From the sequence record PZ445406.1: 47,149 bases of DNA, one strand, 5' to 3'. Made by a program: the position numbers and the translations under genes. Within the stretch, counting starts at the first letter, position 1. Each line of letters begins with the position of its first letter. This document shows, one piece after another, positions 10,711 through 45,609 of the stretch. The notes under the pieces are model-generated. The model had not been told where the DNA came from and searched no databases. It saw nothing but the letters and a program-made list of their open reading frames with translations. Origin of the DNA: a phage.

Positions 10711-11187
10711 ATGAACTGGAATGATATTTTCGATTATAGGGATGGTGTTCTTTATTGGAAGATAAGTCCGAGGTCAAGAACCCCAATCGGATCAGTTGCC
10801 GGACATTTATCAAAGGCTGGCTATATAACAACGTCATACATGAAGAGGGCTCTTCTTGCCCATAGGGTTGTGTGGGAAATGCATAACGGACCAATACCAG
10901 AAGGAATGCAGATAGACCACATAAATCACAACAGAAGTGATAACAGGATTTGCAATTTAAGACTTGCTACTGTTTTTGATAACAATCAAAACATGAGCAG
11001 AGGTAAGGGAAATAGAAGTGGCGTTGTTGGTGTTAGCTGGCATAAGAGCGCAAAAAAGTGGTGCGCTGAGATTCATGCGAATGGCAAAAAGAAATACCTC
11101 GGCGTGTTTGATAGTTTTGATGATGCGGTTCTCGCTAGAAAGAGCGCAGAGTTACATTTTGGTTTTCATGAAAATCACGGAGCATAA
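10711..11187 (+). CDS. HNH homing endonuclease (HNH plus AP2-like domain)
   Basis: HINHNRSDNR motif then AP2-like GVSWHKSAKKW; free-standing with own promoter between tape measure and M genes. Confidence 0.75.
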   Translation: MNWNDIFDYRDGVLYWKISPRSRTPIGSVAGHLSKAGYITTSYMKRALLAHRVVWEMHNGPIPEGMQIDHINHNRSDNRICNLRLATVFDNNQNMSRGKGNRSGVVGVSWHKSAKKWCAEIHANGKKKYLGVFDSFDDAVLARKSAELHFGFHENHGA

Positions 11188-13104: not shown

Positions 13105-13657
13105 TATTAAGTTAGGCCTATCTCTAGGCCGAAAGTTTGGCAAGATTCACCAAATGGCTGTGAGTAGCGTGCCAGAGGCAATGAGAGCACTTTGTTCTCA
13201 GATCCCAGCCTTCAAGGAGTTCATGAATAGCCATGTAGGTCAAAACACAAGGTACGCCGTGTTCGTTGATGGTAAAAATGTGAACGAGCATCGAATCTCT
13301 GATTTTAGCGCCGTTCAGGAGATACGCATCTTACCAATTCCCCAGGGTCGTAAGTCTGGCGGTTTGTTTCAGACAATTTTAGGTGCCGCTCTTATCACGG
13401 TTGGCATCTTTACTGGTCAGATTTATCTTGTTGGCGCTGGTGTGTCTTTAGCTGCTGGTGGTATTGCGCAATTACTTTCACCACAAGCAACAGGATTAAA
13501 GACTCAGGACAACAAAACAAGCAACAGAGCATCTTACGCATTTGGTTCAGCTGTGAACACGGTGGCTGCTGGTTATCCAATCTGTCTCCCGTATGGCTAT
13601 AGAACGGTTGGCGGTTCTGTGTTTAGTGCCGGCAGTTATTCCGAAGACATTGCTTAA
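13085..13657 (+). CDS. tail assembly protein I (lambda gpI-like)
   Basis: Overlaps K stop; hydrophobic Gly-rich C-terminal segment; synteny. Confidence 0.7.
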   Translation: MTQKLIDIKLGLSLGRKFGKIHQMAVSSVPEAMRALCSQIPAFKEFMNSHVGQNTRYAVFVDGKNVNEHRISDFSAVQEIRILPIPQGRKSGGLFQTILGAALITVGIFTGQIYLVGAGVSLAAGGIAQLLSPQATGLKTQDNKTSNRASYAFGSAVNTVAAGYPICLPYGYRTVGGSVFSAGSYSEDIA

Positions 13658-13664
13658 ATATCAT

Positions 13665-13687
13665 ACCCGCCTAGTGCGGGTTTTTTA
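13665..13687 (+). terminator. intrinsic terminator before J
   Basis: ACCCGC-ctagt-GCGGGT hairpin plus T6. Confidence 0.55.
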
Positions 13688-13698
13688 TTTAGTGTAGA

Positions 13699-16600
13699 AT
13701 GGCACAAATGATCAAAACAAACGTGAGGCTTTGTGATATGGCTGAAGAGATTAAGATTTATGGTGCTAAAGGCGGTAGCCAGAAGCAGCATCAACCAGTG
13801 GAGCAGGAAGATAACCTTATTTCACTTAACAAGGTTAAGGTATTGCTTGCGGTTGCTGACGGAGAGGTGGATCCAAACTTCTCAATGAAGGATTTATACC
13901 TTGCTGACGTTCCGGTGCAAAACCAGGATGGTAGCTACAACTACGAAGGTGTTCGCGCTGAGTTCCGTGCTGGCACGCAGTATCAGGACTATATCGCTGG
14001 CCTTGATGGTGCAAACTCAGAGATTCAGGCATCCAGAGAAATCACGAACGATACCCCGTATATCATCGCGGTTAACAATACTCAGCTATCAGCAATTCGA
14101 GTTAAGCTATTTTGGCCTCGACTAGTTAAGCAAGAAAGTAACGGCGACCTGAACGGTACGACATGTGAGTATGCAATTGACCTATCTGTTAATGGTGGAG
14201 TATATCAGGAATACACTCGCGGAGTTGCTAACGGTAAGACAACTACAGGTTACGACCGCAGCATTCGTGTCAACCTTCCGGCAGAGTTTGATAGCGCACT
14301 GGTTCGAATCCGTAAGATTACGCCAGACTCAACTAGTAGCACGCTGGTCAACGGAATGCAGATTACAACCTATCAGGAAGTAATCGACGCTAAATTCCGC
14401 TATCCGCTTACCGCCCTGGTTTATGTTGAGTTTGGCTCTGACTTGTTCCCTAACGGAATCCCAACAATTTCTATAAAGAAGCGCTGGAAGTTGATTCAGG
14501 TACCGACAAACTACGACCCGGAGACGAGAACTTACAGCGGGACATGGAATGGACTGTTCAAAATGGCATGGTCAAACAACCCAGCTTGGGTTCTTTATGA
14601 CTTAGTGACAAACCGCCGATATGGTCTTGACCAGCGAGAACTAGGTGTAGAGATTGATAAGTGGGGTCTTTACGAGGCTGCGCAATTCTGCGACCAGATG
14701 GTGCCGGATGGTAAGGGTGGTTTAGAGCCTCGTTATCTTTGCGATATGGTTGTACAGAACAAGGTTGAGGCCTACACGCTAATTCGTGATATCTGTTCAA
14801 TCTTCCGTGGTCTGACTTTCTATGATGGAGAAAAGATTGGCATCGTAGTTGATAAGCCTCGTAATCCATCATACATCTTCACGAATGATAACGTTGTAAA
14901 CGGATTGTTCAGCCGCACCTTTGCCAGTGATAAGAGTCTTTACACCACTGCAAACGTTCAGTTTGATGATGTTGAGAACAACTATCAGCAGGATGTTGAG
15001 CCAGTTTTTGAACTCGAGGCTACTCGAAGATTTGGCTTTAACCCTGTTGACCTCACGGCTATTGGCTGTACTCGCAGAAGTGAGGCAAACAGGCGCGGCA
15101 GGTGGCTCCTAAAAACCAACCTGAGAAGCGAAACTATCAGCTTCACTACCGGGTTGGAAGGTATGATTCCGATGGTTGGCGAGGTAATTGCGGTCAATGA
15201 CGCTGCATGGTCGAGCAACTATCAGTTAAACCTTTCTGGTCGCATTGAATCAGTTCAGGGATTGCAGGTTTTCACCCCTTTTAAAGTTGACGCAGCGCCT
15301 GGTGACAGAATTCTTCTGAACAAGCCAGACGGAAGTCCAGAGGCAAGAACTATTGCCAGCGTTTCGGAGGATGGAAGAACAATCAACCTTAACACTGCTT
15401 TTAGTTTTGTAGCTCAACCTGACACTGTTTTCGCAATCGATAAGGATAATATCGCGCTTCAACAGTATGTTGTGACCGGGATTCAAAAAGCAGACTCTGA
15501 TGGTTCGGATTCATTTCAGTATACGATTACAGCAGTAGAGTATGACCCGAACAAGTATGACGAGATTGACTACGGGGTTAACATTGTTGACCGTCCAACT
15601 TCAATTGTGGAACCTGACAGATTGTCGCCGCCCGAGAACTTAACAGTATCAAGCTACAGTAAGGTTGTTCAGGGTTTGTCGGTTGAGACGATGGTTATCG
15701 GATGGGATAAAGCGCCATACGCTAAAACATACAATGTTCAGTGGAGAAAAGAAAATGGCAACTGGATTAACGTACCCAGAACAGCAAGTACAGAGGTTGA
15801 TATTGAGGGCATTTACGCAGGAATCTATGACGTTAGGGTTCGCAGCGTATCAGATACTGAAAACGTATCTGCCTGGTCTGACATTGTAACGGTATCGCTA
15901 ACTGGCAAGATTGGTCGCCCATCTGCGCCTACGGTTATCACGGCTTCAACTGATGAGGTATTTGGAATTCGTGTTAAGTGGGGTTTCCCTGAAGGATCCG
16001 GTGACACTGCTTACACTGAACTTCAGCAGGTCGCTGATAATGGTGACGGCACTTACAATCCTGATAACGCAAGTTTGCTTACGTTACTGCCGTACCCAGC
16101 ATATGAATACTGGCACACGCCAATTCAGCCAGGAAAGGTTATCTGGTATCGCGCTAGATTGATCGACAGAATAGGTAATACCTCTGATTGGTCTGACTTT
16201 GCTAGAGGTATGAGCACTGACGATGCCAACATCATCAACGATTACATCAAAGTTGATATTGAAGGCTCAGAAGGATTCAAATATCTCGAGCAGAATGCGA
16301 TTCAAAAGAATCAGGACATTCAGAATCAAGCTGAGGCAATTATCGAGAACGCATTAGCTAATGACACTGATGTTCGTCGCATGACTAAGGAGAACGGAAA
16401 ACGTAAGGCTGAATATGTTCAGGCAGTGAATCTCATAGCTGATGAAACTCAGGCGCGTGTGGAGGCTCTCACGGCCCTTAAAGCACAGATAGATGATGAG
16501 ATTGTTGGTCAGATTACGACTATTGAAACGGCGCTGGCTACAGAGACTGAAGCTAGAGCTACGGCTGACACTCAGCTATCAGCAAGGATTGGTGATAACG

Positions 16601-18386: not shown

Positions 18387-19059
18387 TTGCAATGAAAACC
18401 GCCCTTGCGAATCCTCTCGGTGTAAGACTGCGGACTACCTTCGTTTTCTTACTCTTACCGCCTAGCTTCTTGTATTGGTCTGAGAATCCGTCATTAACAG
18501 GCACGGGAATAGCATCAGGCCATTTAAACCCATTGCCAGACCAAATACATGTCTTCTTAGGATATGCGTCGCGAGGCTTTATTAGGTCGCTAAAAAACGG
18601 GTGTAAATCATCTTCCGGCAAATAGCCTCCGTATTCGTAAGGGTGGAAAGTGTTATCAGGCTTTCGCCAAAGTGATGAAAGTACGCTTATCGGGTTCTCA
18701 ATCATGTATGGCACTTGGTACTTATTAGCCAGGTTAAAGGCAACTTTACACGCTTCAGCAGCTTCAATTTGGAAATTGGGGTTAGCAAGGCGCTTGCGCT
18801 CAAAGTGTCTTGACCCGCTCACCGCTAAATCCGTACAGGGCGGGAATGCCAAAATGAAATCAGGCTTCACATTAAAATCGAAGTCAGCATCTATCCATGC
18901 GTTAACATAGGTGATGTTGTGATGCTCAACCTTTGCATTTAAGTCACCGTAGCTCCCATGGTCAGAATCATCAAAGTTGAAACAGTAGCAAGTGTGACCA
19001 GCTTCAGCCCAATCTTTCACCGCAAGACCAGAGCCATCAAATAAAGACCAGATAACCAT
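18370..19059 (-). CDS. DNA cytosine-C5 methyltransferase-like protein
   Basis: Motif I-like LFDGSG, motif IV-like FPPCT, motif VI-like ENP; GAGAGGA SD. Confidence 0.45.
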   Translation of the reverse strand: MVIWSLFDGSGLAVKDWAEAGHTCYCFNFDDSDHGSYGDLNAKVEHHNITYVNAWIDADFDFNVKPDFILAFPPCTDLAVSGSRHFERKRLANPNFQIEAAEACKVAFNLANKYQVPYMIENPISVLSSLWRKPDNTFHPYEYGGYLPEDDLHPFFSDLIKPRDAYPKKTCIWSGNGFKWPDAIPVPVNDGFSDQYKKLGGKSKKTKVVRSLTPRGFARAVFIANSTNC

Positions 19060-19442
19060 TTTACAATCCTCTCTCGTTGTTTGTGCGACTAACTATACCA
19101 GGTTTTGCGTCTGAGTTTTAGCTATTCGTGCTATTGCATACACGTAACAGATGTAACTTGATGTATACAATCTAATCCGCGGAAAATGATATACGCCAAG
19201 TTACGCATGGTTACGCTATATTTACATTAAAATATCTATATATATCAACCATTTACTCTTATTATTATTATTATATATATTACTGTGTATATCATGTAAC
19301 TACCTCTATAGAGTGTTCCGGTTGCAATTTTAATATCATGTGGATTTATACAGTGTTGCACGGTGCTATACCAATGCACCCTCAGCAATAAATGATATAC
19401 ACGATATACACACTAGTTACATTGAGCTATAGCTGATCTGAG
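19060..19442. repeat. AT-rich divergent control region A with iterons and (TTA)5 microsatellite
   Basis: No credible ORF; tandem GATATACAC x2 at 19394-19411; (TTA)5 at 19259-19273; 19-mer ATATCTATATATATCAACC at 19232-19250 shared with region B. Confidence 0.6.
19092..19134 (-). promoter_or_regulatory. phage-type promoter module (leftward from region A)
   Basis: Minus strand ATAGCACGAATAGCTA, 21-22 bp spacer, TATAGT. Confidence 0.5.
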
Positions 19443-25504: not shown

Positions 25505-25522
25505 ATAGCACGATTTGCTAAA
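25505..25522. promoter_or_regulatory. isolated copy of the TAGCAC/TGCTA palindrome (operator-like)
   Basis: ATAGCACGATTTGCTAAA between primase terminator and tail fiber start, with no matching -10 at the usual spacing. Confidence 0.35.
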
Positions 25523-25546
25523 GTTGATTGTAGCATCTTTAGGGCA

Positions 25547-25570
25547 TAAAAAAACCTCCCGAAGGAGGTT
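25547..25570 (-). terminator. intrinsic terminator after primase (minus strand)
   Basis: ACCTCC-cgaa-GGAGGT hairpin with A7 on plus strand (T7 on minus). Confidence 0.55.
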
Positions 25571-29121: not shown

Positions 29122-29541
29122 ATGAAAATTACAGATAAGGTTGATTACATTGAGTTTTACCCAGGCCCTGTTAATTCATGCCCTAAAGAGGATGACGAAC
29201 AAATCTTTTGCTCTGATTGGGTTAAGTATAACTATCCAGACATGGTGTTTTTCCACTGCGTGAATGAGGGTAAGAAAACAATTGGACAAGCAAGAAAAGA
29301 CCAGGCTAAGGGTTTATTGAAGGGCGTATCTGACTGCATGTTTCTGATACCTGAATCTATCCGAGGCAAATACCCTTTCGGAGCCATAGAGCTAAAGAGG
29401 GCAGGAAAAACACAGGCAAGCCCAGTCAGTGACGAACAGAAGTCCTTCCTGAAAAGCGTAAGAGAATCAGGCGGCTTCGCGGCTGTAGCCTATGGTCGCG
29501 AGGGTTTTCTGGCAGCATTCAAAGAAATGATTTCAAAATAG
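29122..29541 (+). CDS. VRR-NUC-like PD-(D/E)XK nuclease
   Basis: D...ELK signature (SDCMF...IELKRAGK); GGAGGA SD. Confidence 0.5.
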   Translation: MKITDKVDYIEFYPGPVNSCPKEDDEQIFCSDWVKYNYPDMVFFHCVNEGKKTIGQARKDQAKGLLKGVSDCMFLIPESIRGKYPFGAIELKRAGKTQASPVSDEQKSFLKSVRESGGFAAVAYGREGFLAAFKEMISK

Positions 29542-29581
29542 CACGAATTGCTAAAGGTATTTCGCAGGGATGCGATATAGT
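29538..29581 (+). promoter_or_regulatory. phage-type promoter module
   Basis: ATAGCACGAATTGCTA, 22-bp spacer, TATAGT, leader TTACCCCATCGAAACGAAA. Confidence 0.55.
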
Positions 29582-29619
29582 TACCCCATCGAAACGAAAC
29601 ACTAAAAGAGAGAAACAAA

Positions 29620-29823
29620 ATGGCCACTATCTACACCACTAAGAAATACATTTCACGTAAAACTGGTTACGAGTATAACCTGGTTCTTGATGACTCGCTC
29701 GGCATGCTTCTCGCTGACGCTGAAGATGCTGAATACTGCTTTGAAGTTAGCTCGACTTACAAAGATGATTTAGAAACTGTTAAAAACGTATTCGGCGAAA
29801 AATTTGATGAGGTGTCAGAATGA
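29620..29823 (+). CDS. hypothetical small protein, paralog A1
   Basis: C-terminus identical to next gene; own phage-type promoter. Confidence 0.55.
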   Translation: MATIYTTKKYISRKTGYEYNLVLDDSLGMLLADAEDAEYCFEVSSTYKDDLETVKNVFGEKFDEVSE

Positions 29824-29863
29824 GAGTGGTAGTTGTAAACTGGAAAACTGGAGAGGATTCAAA

Positions 29864-29907
29864 ATAGCACGAATTGCTAAACTATGACGCATGGAAGCGT
29901 GTATTAT
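29864..29907 (+). promoter_or_regulatory. phage-type promoter module (duplicated copy)
   Basis: ATAGCACGAATTGCTA, 22-bp spacer, TATTAT. Confidence 0.55.
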
Positions 29908-29940
29908 CAACTCATCGAAAAGAAACTAGGAGAGAAAAAA

Positions 29941-30134
29941 TGAATACTATCTATACTGCTAAATTCTACGAATCACGCAAAACCGGTTACCAGTATGAAT
30001 TAGTAATTACAGATGACGGTTATTTTCTTGATGATGGTGAGGGGTACTCATTCGAAGTTAGCCCAACCTACAAGGATGATTTAGAGACTGTTAAAAACGT
30101 ATTCGGCGAAAAATTTGATGAGGTGTCAGAATGA
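29941..30134 (+). CDS. hypothetical small protein, paralog A2
   Basis: ATG 29941 after phage-type promoter; last 22 aa identical to A1. Confidence 0.55.
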
Positions 30135-30289
30135 GAGTGGTAGTTGTAAACTGGAAAACTGGAGAGGATTCAGAATTCTTCTTCAATACATTCTCGCAAT
30201 ACATTGATAAGTATGTTTTCGTTATTGATGGTGAGTGTGAGGTTGTTGTTCCTATTAAGCTAATTGATGGATTGGGAGTATCAGGATAA
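30131..30289 (+). CDS. hypothetical 52-aa protein
   Basis: ATGA overlap with A2; a 15-aa truncated copy follows A1; not in ORF track. Confidence 0.4.
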   Translation: MRVVVVNWKTGEDSEFFFNTFSQYIDKYVFVIDGECEVVVPIKLIDGLGVSG

Positions 30290-30510
30290 TGGCAATTTTT
30301 ACATTTGAGAATCAATGGGAAGCATTTAAGGTAATGGCAGCGGAGGAATTATACAAGGCATATTATAAGCGTGATTTATGGGGATTGGTGCATTGCCTGG
30401 ATATGAGCTTTGAAGAAGACTACCTGAACACCGATATCGAAACATGGCGAGACAGGATGGTTGCTGATATCGAAGAGATGAAAAAAGATTGCCCGGAGGA
30501 TTTTTTATGA
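30289..30510 (+). CDS. hypothetical acidic protein
   Basis: TAATG overlap with upstream ORF. Confidence 0.45.
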   Translation: MAIFTFENQWEAFKVMAAEELYKAYYKRDLWGLVHCLDMSFEEDYLNTDIETWRDRMVADIEEMKKDCPEDFL

Positions 30511-30692
30511 TTGGCATCTGCGTAAAAACGAATGGGCAATTTACACTACTCGAGGATTACGAAATCAACTCTCATTCAGATGAGGTAACAGTGTTTAGCG
30601 ATGATGGATGCTATTGGTTCCTTAGTTATCAAGGTGATGGCTACTACGGATGCATTGATTCAAACGGAAAAGAAGTTAGTTTCTTAGTCTAA
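30507..30692 (+). CDS. hypothetical protein
   Basis: ATG 30507 with GGAGGA SD (track start 30489 is TTG). Confidence 0.45.
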   Translation: MIGICVKTNGQFTLLEDYEINSHSDEVTVFSDDGCYWFLSYQGDGYYGCIDSNGKEVSFLV

Positions 30693-36001: not shown

Positions 36002-36075
36002 TACTTCTCTCCGTATTGTTTTTGAGAGGCCATTATATCAACGACCTCTTATAAAGCATTATCAATTTGTGCTAT

Positions 36076-39187: not shown

Positions 39188-39714
39188 TGTTTGATTTCAA
39201 CGAAGAAAAGCTGACAGATGAGCAGGTCATGAGTATTGCGAAGCAGGATGGGATTCCCCCGCTACGGGTTGCAATCAATGCAAACGGGTATCGTCATGTT
39301 CAACACCTCTGGAGTCATCCTGATGCGTCATCAATCCACAAGGGTGAGGCTGTTGAGGTTCTGCTGACAGCGATAAGGACTGAATCTATAGCTCGCAGGG
39401 GAGTTGTTGGCTTACAGAAGTCTTATGACCTAATTAGGAAGCTAAAGAGGTTTAAAGGTGACAATGACGGGCTAATGGAGAGGATTAAGGACGAAATGAT
39501 TCCAGAGCTAGAGAAAGCGAATCTCGTTTGCCTCATTGGAGATAAGATTTATGTCCACCCGGCTATCATTGAGGAGTCCTGGCAACCCAACTTCAAAACT
39601 TACGAAGGTGATCACACTAGTAGACTACCATACCACTTGCGGTACAGTGAGGCGGAGGTGGAAGAGGCTATTGAGTTCTACCGGAAGACTAAATCACTCC
39701 TGAATGGCGAATAG
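39187..39714 (+). CDS. hypothetical protein sharing N- and C-termini with the 34418-36001 ATPase
   Basis: First ~40 aa and last ~30 aa align with the 527-aa protein; central domain absent. Confidence 0.5.
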   Translation: MFDFNEEKLTDEQVMSIAKQDGIPPLRVAINANGYRHVQHLWSHPDASSIHKGEAVEVLLTAIRTESIARRGVVGLQKSYDLIRKLKRFKGDNDGLMERIKDEMIPELEKANLVCLIGDKIYVHPAIIEESWQPNFKTYEGDHTSRLPYHLRYSEAEVEEAIEFYRKTKSLLNGE

Positions 39715-39754
39715 CACGAATTGCTAAACAATGGATCGGGTAGTCAGCTATGAT
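39711..39754 (+). promoter_or_regulatory. phage-type promoter module
   Basis: ATAGCACGAATTGCTA, 22-bp spacer, TATGAT. Confidence 0.5.
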
Positions 39755-39784
39755 TACCCTATCAACAACGAAGAGGAAATGAAG

Positions 39785-41691: not shown

Positions 41692-41731
41692 CACTAATTG
41701 TTAAAACAACATTGGGGTAATTTGATATAGT
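41688..41731 (+). promoter_or_regulatory. phage-type promoter module
   Basis: ATAGCAC-taat-TGTTAA, 22-bp spacer, TATAGT, leader TTACCCCATCGAAACGAA. Confidence 0.55.
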
Positions 41732-41761
41732 TACCCCATCGAAACGAATGAGGACAAACAG

Positions 41762-45132: not shown

Positions 45133-45609
45133 ATGGATTGGGGTGATTTTTTCTATTTAAGCAGCGAATCTCCTAGTGGTCTAAAATGGAAAGTTGACAA
45201 AGGGAGGGTAAGGGCTGGCGATAACGCTATAACGGCAATTGGTAATGGCTATTACAAGGGCAGGTTAAACCAGGTGACTGTTTATGCCCACAGGGTAGTT
45301 TATTTTCTTGCGTACGGAGTAAAGCCAGAGGTAATAGATCACATTGATGGTGATGGCCTTAATAACTCAATAGACAATCTTCGAGACGGAACAACAAGGC
45401 AGAATATGCAAAACAGAGCGTGTAAGGGCTACAGCTACAACAAAAGGGATGACGTTTATTACGCGCAGATAACAAAGAATGGGGTGACTAGACATATTGG
45501 GTCTTTCTCCACAAAGGAATCAGCCATAGCTGCATACCTAAGAGAGAAGTCTTTAGTTCATGAGTTTTATAATGAGGAAAGAGATATATGCTCATCTGGG
45601 AAGAAATGA
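45133..45609 (+). CDS. HNH homing endonuclease (HNH plus AP2-like domain)
   Basis: HIDGDGLNNSIDNLR HNH motif and AP2-like C-terminus; stop overlaps terL ATG. Confidence 0.75.
   Translation: MDWGDFFYLSSESPSGLKWKVDKGRVRAGDNAITAIGNGYYKGRLNQVTVYAHRVVYFLAYGVKPEVIDHIDGDGLNNSIDNLRDGTTRQNMQNRACKGYSYNKRDDVYYAQITKNGVTRHIGSFSTKESAIAAYLREKSLVHEFYNEERDICSSGKK

Follow-up and report, generated by a model that had tools for sequence, protein, structure and literature searches.

Two alleles of one small gene, probably stacked by recombination, form a tandem pair in Escherichia phage JeanPiccard

How does a phage come to carry, side by side, two copies of a small gene whose ends are identical and whose middle parts are not? 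Such a pair is found in Escherichia phage JeanPiccard (Bas02, MZ501080.1; Drexlerviridae, Braunvirinae), whose complete genome, rotated, makes up the 47,149-bp window analysed here (record position = window position + 2592; positions below are those of the window). The two genes, bas02_0039 (copy 1) and bas02_0040 (copy 2), both belong to the protein family phrog_6031. A preliminary description, made from the sequence alone, regarded the locus as a snapshot of gene birth, in which a promoter and its small gene had been duplicated and the N-terminal halves of the products had then diverged. The comparisons assembled here point to a different origin: the locus probably arose through the stacking of two alleles of a single small phage gene by recombination and not as a duplicate that diverged later, and as such the pair is an ordinary result of mosaic recombination among phages, and a well-resolved one.

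The locus consists of two 326-bp units placed head to tail (29532-29857 and 29858-30183; features are listed in Table 1). Both begin with the same 24-mer, TTCAAAATAGCACGAATTGCTAAA, repeated with a period of 326 bp, for which zero chance matches are expected (100 shuffles), and both contain an exact 86-nt block near their 3′ ends, which lies within a 145-nt repeat of 90% identity; self-comparison thus extends the repetition beyond the promoter motif. In the roughly 200 bp between head and tail, the units are 45-70% identical (30-nt windows), and the final 22 residues of the two proteins are the same (TYKDDLETVKNVFGEKFDEVSE). In these respects the preliminary description was accurate: it had recognized two consecutive units of about 330 bp with a common start and 3′ tail, 22 identical C-terminal amino acids (aa) in proteins of 64-67 aa, and a 52-aa open reading frame (ORF52) that is intact only after the second copy and cut to 15 aa by the next promoter after the first. 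Its outer limits, 29533-30190, were correct to within a few bases, the true bounds being those of the two units given above.

The evidence on origin comes first from the cores of the two genes. The leader and core of copy 1 (29583-29783) agree with the single-copy gene of phage RobRod40 at 194 of 201 positions and with copy 2 at only 130; along the 193-nt patch 29583-29775, identity is 96.4% to RobRod40 and 93% to L013, a second, likewise single-copy, carrier of this type (allele A), with all others at 80% or below and, over the full length, at about 70%. The core of copy 2 (allele B) shares 98% protein identity with P0063, the lone phrog_6031 member on the metagenomic phage contig L010, and 91.6% identity with its DNA; a position count against L010 gives 170 matches of 190. 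The two JeanPiccard cores are 65% identical to each other. By the Nei-Gojobori method, the synonymous divergence between them is saturated (dS = 3.8, with a non-synonymous divergence, dN, of 0.33), as against dS = 0.07 between copy 1 and RobRod40. Taken together, the RobRod40 match of copy 1, the P0063/L010 match of copy 2 and the saturated dS indicate that the two halves are pre-existing alleles that were joined; by these sequence comparisons, the cores are old alleles that circulate separately at one locus in related phages. The claims of gene birth and of divergence after duplication therefore do not hold for cores that occur as single copies in other phages. The dN/dS ratio of the cores, proposed earlier as a check on the diverged halves, is well below 1 and thus gives no sign of positive selection, and is uninformative because dS is saturated.

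The boundary between the two types of sequence within copy 1 can be placed closely. In a closest-relative test, only over the 24-nt head and 86-nt tail are the copies each other's nearest relatives; of the cores, that of copy 1 is nearest to RobRod40 and that of copy 2 to L010. In the 33 nt preceding the 86-nt block, copy 1 departs from copy 2 at five sites and sides with RobRod40 at four of them; within the block, it matches copy 2 throughout and three sites set it apart from RobRod40, and past the stop codon the copy 1 unit shares nothing with RobRod40. The informative sites thus change parentage within ACTGTTAAAAACG (29776-29788), and copy 1 is, judging from this switch, a chimera that is RobRod40-like up to ACTGTTAAAAACG and identical to copy 2 after it. 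ORF52 is absent altogether from RobRod40, L013, Rtp, L014 and L010; as the known allele-A carriers lack it, the stump behind copy 1 cannot derive from the allele-A lineage.

These results bear directly on the older view, namely a tandem duplication within the lineage followed by divergence of the N-terminal halves, with head and tail held together by constraint or gene conversion. The identical head and 86-nt tail are what it would lead one to expect, and the N- and C-termini are indeed the conserved parts of the family, residues ~20-40 being variable among 76 homologues. However, the core of copy 1 is 96-97% identical to the single-copy RobRod40 gene and 93% to L013, that of copy 2 is 92% identical to L010, and parentage switches sharply at 29776-29788; furthermore, the synonymous sites of the cores are saturated, yet the ORF52 stump, equivalent to non-coding sequence, shows no change in 42 nt. 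In-lineage divergence is already contradicted by these data and deserves next to no credence.

The joint between the units indicates how they came to lie in tandem. The novel junction reads GGATTCA followed by AAATAGCAC (joint-spanning sequences GGAGAGGATTCAAAATAGCAC and GGATTCAAAATAGCAC). One parental site, TTCAAAAT (29532-29539; context ATGATTTCAAAATAGCAC), lies at the end of the VRR-NUC nuclease gene, and the other, TTCAGAAT (30169-30176; context GGATTCAGAATTC), lies within ORF52, where phage SU57 has TTCAAAAT (context GGATTCAAAATTC). Common to both sites is TTCA plus AAT, that is, a microhomology of 4-8 nt, TTCA(A/G)AAT, at the 5′ edge of the direct repeat contained in the unit head, and the joint is outside the repeat interior. 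On this pattern, the joint is taken as an illegitimate, microhomology-level event. The earlier term "promoter-mediated" is only loosely apt for it, since a joint on 4-8 nt at the 5′ repeat edge is not a promoter-promoter crossover; the accompanying view of the repeated element as a promoter plus small gene stands, in that a complete expression unit is repeated and its head very probably belongs to a promoter.

The history that we consider probable would start from a genome with the layout of T145P1 or SU57 (repeat, gene, ORF52, ORF73). In a first step, an illegitimate exchange would have joined TTCA(A/G)AAT in ORF52 (codons 13-15) to TTCAAAAT immediately 5′ of the repeat, with a tandem duplication of 326 bp and an ORF52 stump of 15 aa as the result. 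In a second step, a homologous crossover with a RobRod40-like phage within the conserved ACTGTTAAAAACG of the first copy would have turned everything to the left of it, the gene core included, into RobRod40-type sequence, and short-patch exchanges would additionally have swapped the 27-nt promoter spacers. Proteins of the exonuclease VIII, Erf-like and SSB types support short-homology recombination; JeanPiccard has annotated genes for an exonuclease VIII homologue, an Erf-like annealing protein and SSB, recombination genes are present in its relatives too, and the phage's own set would catalyse these short-homology events.

Several points weigh against this history. The 27-nt spacer of unit 1, of the "beta" type, matches L010 copy 2 at 26 of 27 positions and JulesPiccard at 25, but RobRod40 at only 11; it fits neither parent, RobRod40 and L013 being of the gamma type, so that at least one further exchange is needed. 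(The unit 2 spacer is mostly unique, its 3′ half resembling cassette 1 of phage ES.) Moreover, a single genome does not fix which of the two events came first, later gene conversion could account for the 86-nt identity just as well, and the intermediate, a phage with two B-type copies, was not found among the phages compared. Finally, the arrangement rests on one assembly, and its joint was found nowhere else in IMG/VR or the metagenomes of the Joint Genome Institute (JGI).

An alternative is a single heterologous event: co-infecting phages carrying alleles A and B would have recombined illegitimately, or by serial template switching, at TTCAAAAT, their tails having been identical beforehand or homogenised later. 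The left arm is indeed RobRod40-like and the right arm T145P1-, Rtp- and L010-like, there is microhomology at the joint, and the region is a patchwork in which the closest relative differs from gene to gene (RobRod40 for the 3′ end of the helicase gene, 95%; T145P1 for ORF52, 98.7%; Rtp for ORF73, 92.8%), which implies that mixed infections must be common. The known allele-A genomes, however, have no ORF52 to provide the stump, and the tail of copy 1 departs from RobRod40 exactly where it equals copy 2, so that an extra crossover or conversion would still be required; we regard this version as unlikely.

The uniqueness of the arrangement also raises the question of an artefact. With copy 1 as tblastn query, a phrog_6031 gene was found in 112 phage records at 113 places, and two copies were found only in JeanPiccard; as for the comparison with related phages suggested earlier, JeanPiccard alone is duplicated among the 112 records, while the single copies of relatives match each core separately. 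Searching with copy 2 gave extra places, among them one in phage 2725-N35, where the second match reflects overlapping ends of the linear record and not a second copy. Phage ES was rejected as a second tandem case, its first cassette encoding an unrelated 62-aa protein. A misassembly of a lysate with two variants of the locus would fit the single assembly, the absence of the joint elsewhere and the exact copy 1 protein being on record only in JeanPiccard (one contig). Against this, the joint GGAGAGGATTCAAAATAGCAC shares only 8 nt with either parental context, presumably not enough to mislead a k-mer assembler, copy 1 has changes of its own with respect to RobRod40 (e.g., T29752, giving Ser45), and both units have complete, distinct flanks. 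Of all the explanations considered, this is the least credible.

If the stacking of alleles is correct, the locus offers a base-resolved example of a phage that gained a paralogous pair by stacking circulating alleles through short-homology recombination, and the distinction from duplication plus slow divergence matters for how expansions of viral gene families are read. Microhomology-mediated tandem duplication followed by allelic replacement is seen generally in bacterial and phage genomes; the JeanPiccard locus resembles such cases in its head-to-tail repeat, the 4-8 nt shared at the joint and the truncated gene fragment left behind, but differs in that its copies are not sisters, one core having been replaced by a diverged allele. 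Phage genomes are also said to be mosaics with autonomous gene cassettes of the "moron" type (Hendrix and colleagues); the likeness here lies in a separate promoter for each small gene, nearest relatives that change gene by gene and novel joints at gene boundaries, whereas the JeanPiccard insert is a second allele of a resident gene, yielding a paralogous pair, and not a foreign gene.

The shared head very probably forms part of a promoter. Both unit heads read AAATAGCACGAATTGCTAAA, fitting aaATAGCACnnnTTGnTAAAA, the 21-nt direct repeat of Drexlerviridae that PMC11447400 describes from phage TLS and mentions for T1, Rtp and Rogue1, in a section that leaves its function open between a stoperator, an enhancer site and an UP element. 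The repeats considered here agree with those T1-like repeats in sequence, in being intergenic and co-oriented, in lying about 76 nt upstream of start codons, and in the GAA subclass; the repeat-to-start distances in the two units are 82 nt (29538 to 29620) and 76 nt (29864 to 29940). That section reports no link of the repeat to a -10 hexamer or to genome rearrangement, and the present analysis adds two facts that make a role in unusual promoters directly testable, namely a -10 element at a fixed distance of 22 nt and an over-represented stem-loop in between. In 13 of the 18 JeanPiccard sites (ATAGCACnnnTTGnTA, TLS consensus), TTGnTA is followed at exactly 22 nt by TAnnnT, and a further four sites carry a -10-like hexamer at a distance of 21-23 nt; with seven genomes taken together, TAnnnT stands at exactly +22 in 86 of 122 sites, against a background frequency of 0.016. 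A co-oriented repeat lies within 130 nt upstream of 17 of 83 genes.

Judging by their composition, each 326-bp unit is a self-contained expression cassette (direct repeat, 22-nt spacer, -10 hexamer, leader, ribosome-binding site (RBS) and ORF), and both phrog_6031 genes look expressible. Transcription of unit 1 would start near A29588; the literature searched contains no mapping of start sites in Drexlerviridae. No terminator-like site was found between the two units, and transcripts from the first promoter therefore probably continue into the second unit. Two observations count against a promoter of the ordinary kind: a canonical -35 at a spacing of 16-18 nt is absent, a consensus scan giving no plus-strand promoter at either unit (the hexamer 17 nt upstream of the -10 is AAAGGT or AAACTA), and the 22 nt from TTGCTA to the -10 are a non-canonical geometry for sigma-70. 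What the repeat probably provides is the upstream half of promoters of a non-canonical class, which perhaps requires an activator, and together with the -10 it looks like the main such class of T1-like phages. One might speculate that its partner is bas02_0036, a conserved Cro-like regulator whose match to Pfam P22_Cro (E = 7.6e-6) is below the cutoff.

Across the 122 sites, the folds formed by the 44 nt 3′ of the repeat are more stable than those of shuffled sequence (mean z -1.7 vs -0.05 in random genomic 44-mers, p = 4e-16), with z < -2 in 40% of the sites as against 6% of controls. The enriched structures are stem-loops that differ in sequence and lie either between the repeat and the -10 or across the -10 itself (e.g., 39727-39770, 41704-41747 and, on the minus strand, 36016-36059); some of them show compensatory changes across phages, such as TGAGGTG/CACCTCA in RobRod40 and TGAGTTG/CAACTCA in ES. 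The hairpins of the two tandem units are weak (z = -1.0 and -0.4). Stop codons occur in two of the three frames of the repeat, and ORFs that lie upstream often terminate inside it; the TAG stop of the VRR-NUC gene (29539-29541) falls within the first direct repeat of the locus. A palindrome, TAGCA-N5-TGCTA, was rejected as an operator or hairpin, as other repeat sites read TTGATA, TTGTTA or ATGGTA and its symmetry is not conserved. At 25505-25570 on the plus strand, a repeat copy opposes the flanking minus-strand genes (tail fibre, primase), lacks a -10 and has a GC-rich hairpin, AAAAAACCTCCCGAAGGAGGTT, behind it; this copy may have degenerated or may serve another role. At 39711-39731, the annotated start of bas02_0064 (39731) lies ~4 nt past a repeat with a good -10 at +22, and an ATG follows ~60 nt further; the annotated start may be wrong.

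These repeats invite comparison with the promoter-early stem-loop (PeSL) cassettes of T4-type phages, which mediate modular shuffling (PMC2839356), and in which consensus sigma-70 -35 and -10 boxes stand at normal spacing and promoter and terminator activities have been measured (PMC2839356, PMC4122927). In layout the two resemble each other: the stop codon of the upstream gene falls inside the motif, and with it go promoter elements, a stem-loop of variable sequence placed between the promoter boxes or over them, an RBS and a start codon; both also flank small variable ORFs and replaced cassettes. In JeanPiccard, by contrast, the upstream element of the putative promoter is another motif of 16-21 nt, set 22 nt from the -10, the stem-loops of both units are weak, and the joint is placed at the motif's edge, not inside it.

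A PeSL-style insertion from repeat to repeat, in which a repeat-bounded donor cassette carrying the ORF52 stump was integrated homologously at a recipient repeat, accordingly has a precedent. In L010 and ES, the locus holds other cassettes with repeats at their borders; the Dcm-like cytosine methyltransferase gene bas02_0026 (18388-19116, minus), with direct repeats at both ends, has no DNA match in six compared relatives, and the repeat-bounded segment 39730-40234 likewise has none in relatives. Breakpoints are also enriched near repeats, 10 of 115 lying within 15 nt of one against 1.4 under a uniform expectation (p ~1e-6). The excess over other gene junctions, however, is modest (14/18 vs 32/63; odds ratio 3.4, p = 0.036) and non-significant in subsets (0.13-0.24), no donor with a repeat-truncated ORF52 was found in IMG/VR or the JGI metagenomes, and the next downstream repeat of normal genomes is at 30692 and not within ORF52. 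Repeat-to-repeat insertion is therefore very improbable for this locus, and the evidence for a role of Drexlerviridae repeats in modular shuffling is suggestive only. A bolder and doubtful proposal holds that the repeat/stem-loop/-10 units are the Drexlerviridae counterpart of PeSLs, that is, portable promoter-plus-stop-codon cassettes and preferred recombination sites for swapping and stacking small accessory genes, which host RNA polymerase reads only with a phage factor such as bas02_0036; if it were true, the pair would represent two alleles of a hypervariable host-interaction protein, kept for covering different targets.

Table 1. Coordinates of the tandem locus, its neighbours and the direct-repeat sites in the JeanPiccard window
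Feature	Position	Strand	Remarks
VRR-NUC nuclease gene (bas02_0038)	29122..29541	+	ORF list, annotation, Pfam VRR_NUC E = 1.5e-8
Unit 1 head: 24-nt exact repeat	29532..29555	+	holds Drexlerviridae direct repeat ATAGCACGAATTGCTA, 29538-29553; fits TLS consensus aaATAGCACnnnTTGnTAAAA
Unit 1 spacer, "beta" type	29556..29582	+	-10-like TATAGT 29576-29581, 22 nt past TTGCTA
RobRod40-type patch	29583..29775	+	conserved leader CATCGAAACGAAAC, RBS, allele-A core of bas02_0039
Copy 1 gene bas02_0039, 67 aa, phrog_6031	29620..29823	+	chimera: allele-A core and copy-2-type tail
Crossover zone ACTGTTAAAAACG	29776..29788	+	placed by the table of informative sites
Exact 86-nt repeat, copy 1 side	29776..29861	+	last 48 nt of the gene and first 42 nt of ORF52, through TTCA of the joint
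ORF52 remnant, 15 aa, MRVVVVNWKTGEDSK	29820..29867	+	ATGA overlap with copy 1; ended by TAG of the second direct repeat
Novel joint TTCAAAAT	29858..29865	+	
Unit 2 head: second 24-nt repeat	29858..29881	+	direct repeat 29864-29879
Unit 2 spacer	29882..29939	+	-10-like TATTAT 29902-29907, leader, AGGAG RBS
Copy 2 gene bas02_0040, 64 aa, phrog_6031	29940..30134	+	allele-B core
Exact 86-nt repeat, copy 2 side	30087..30172	+	T145P1-like, 3 differences
Intact ORF52, bas02_0041, 52 aa, phrog_22569	30131..30289	+	closest to T145P1; ATGA overlap with copy 2
Direct-repeat sites, first nine	6629+, 10639+, 18371-, 19119-, 21419+, 25505+, 27037+, 29538+, 29864+		
Direct-repeat sites, last nine	30692+, 36060-, 36843-, 37994-, 39711+, 40238+, 41055+, 41688+, 45061+		

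Both proteins match the phrog_6031 profile over its full length (E = 4.8e-27 for copy 1 and 1.6e-33 for copy 2), and the family comprises 106 homologues, every one in a T1-like phage context. Neither copy has a hit in Pfam, and PHROGs labels the family as of "unknown function". An AlphaFold model built from 76 homologues (predicted local distance difference test score, pLDDT, 87) has six beta strands, and the protein is thus predicted to be small and all-beta. A search of PDB structures with this model returned nothing significant (best E 0.88), and in BFVD only uncharacterised small proteins match, the strongest coming from other T1-like phages (template modelling score, TM, about 0.8).

The locus lies in a run of small function-unassigned genes 3′ of the helicase and VRR-NUC nuclease genes, and an Rfam scan of 29400-30400 gave no RNA family. 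Elsewhere in the genome, two annotated putative homing endonuclease genes (45133-45609 and 10711-11187; record 576-1052 and 13303-13779) adjoin the large terminase gene and the tape-measure gene and coincide with segments unmatched in several relatives. Between the VRR-NUC and phrog_6031 genes, L010 carries an unrelated small-gene cassette (2020-2500) with its own repeat, encoding a 67-aa protein and a 59-aa membrane-like protein, and phage ES (L006) has another unrelated cassette at this site (1168-1440), with a 62-aa protein and its own repeat. In L010, the A-run before the repeat (2010-2033) is one A shorter (TTCAAATAGC), so that the VRR-NUC frame bypasses the TAG and ends at the TAA of the repeat, with a predicted product of 143 aa instead of 139 aa.

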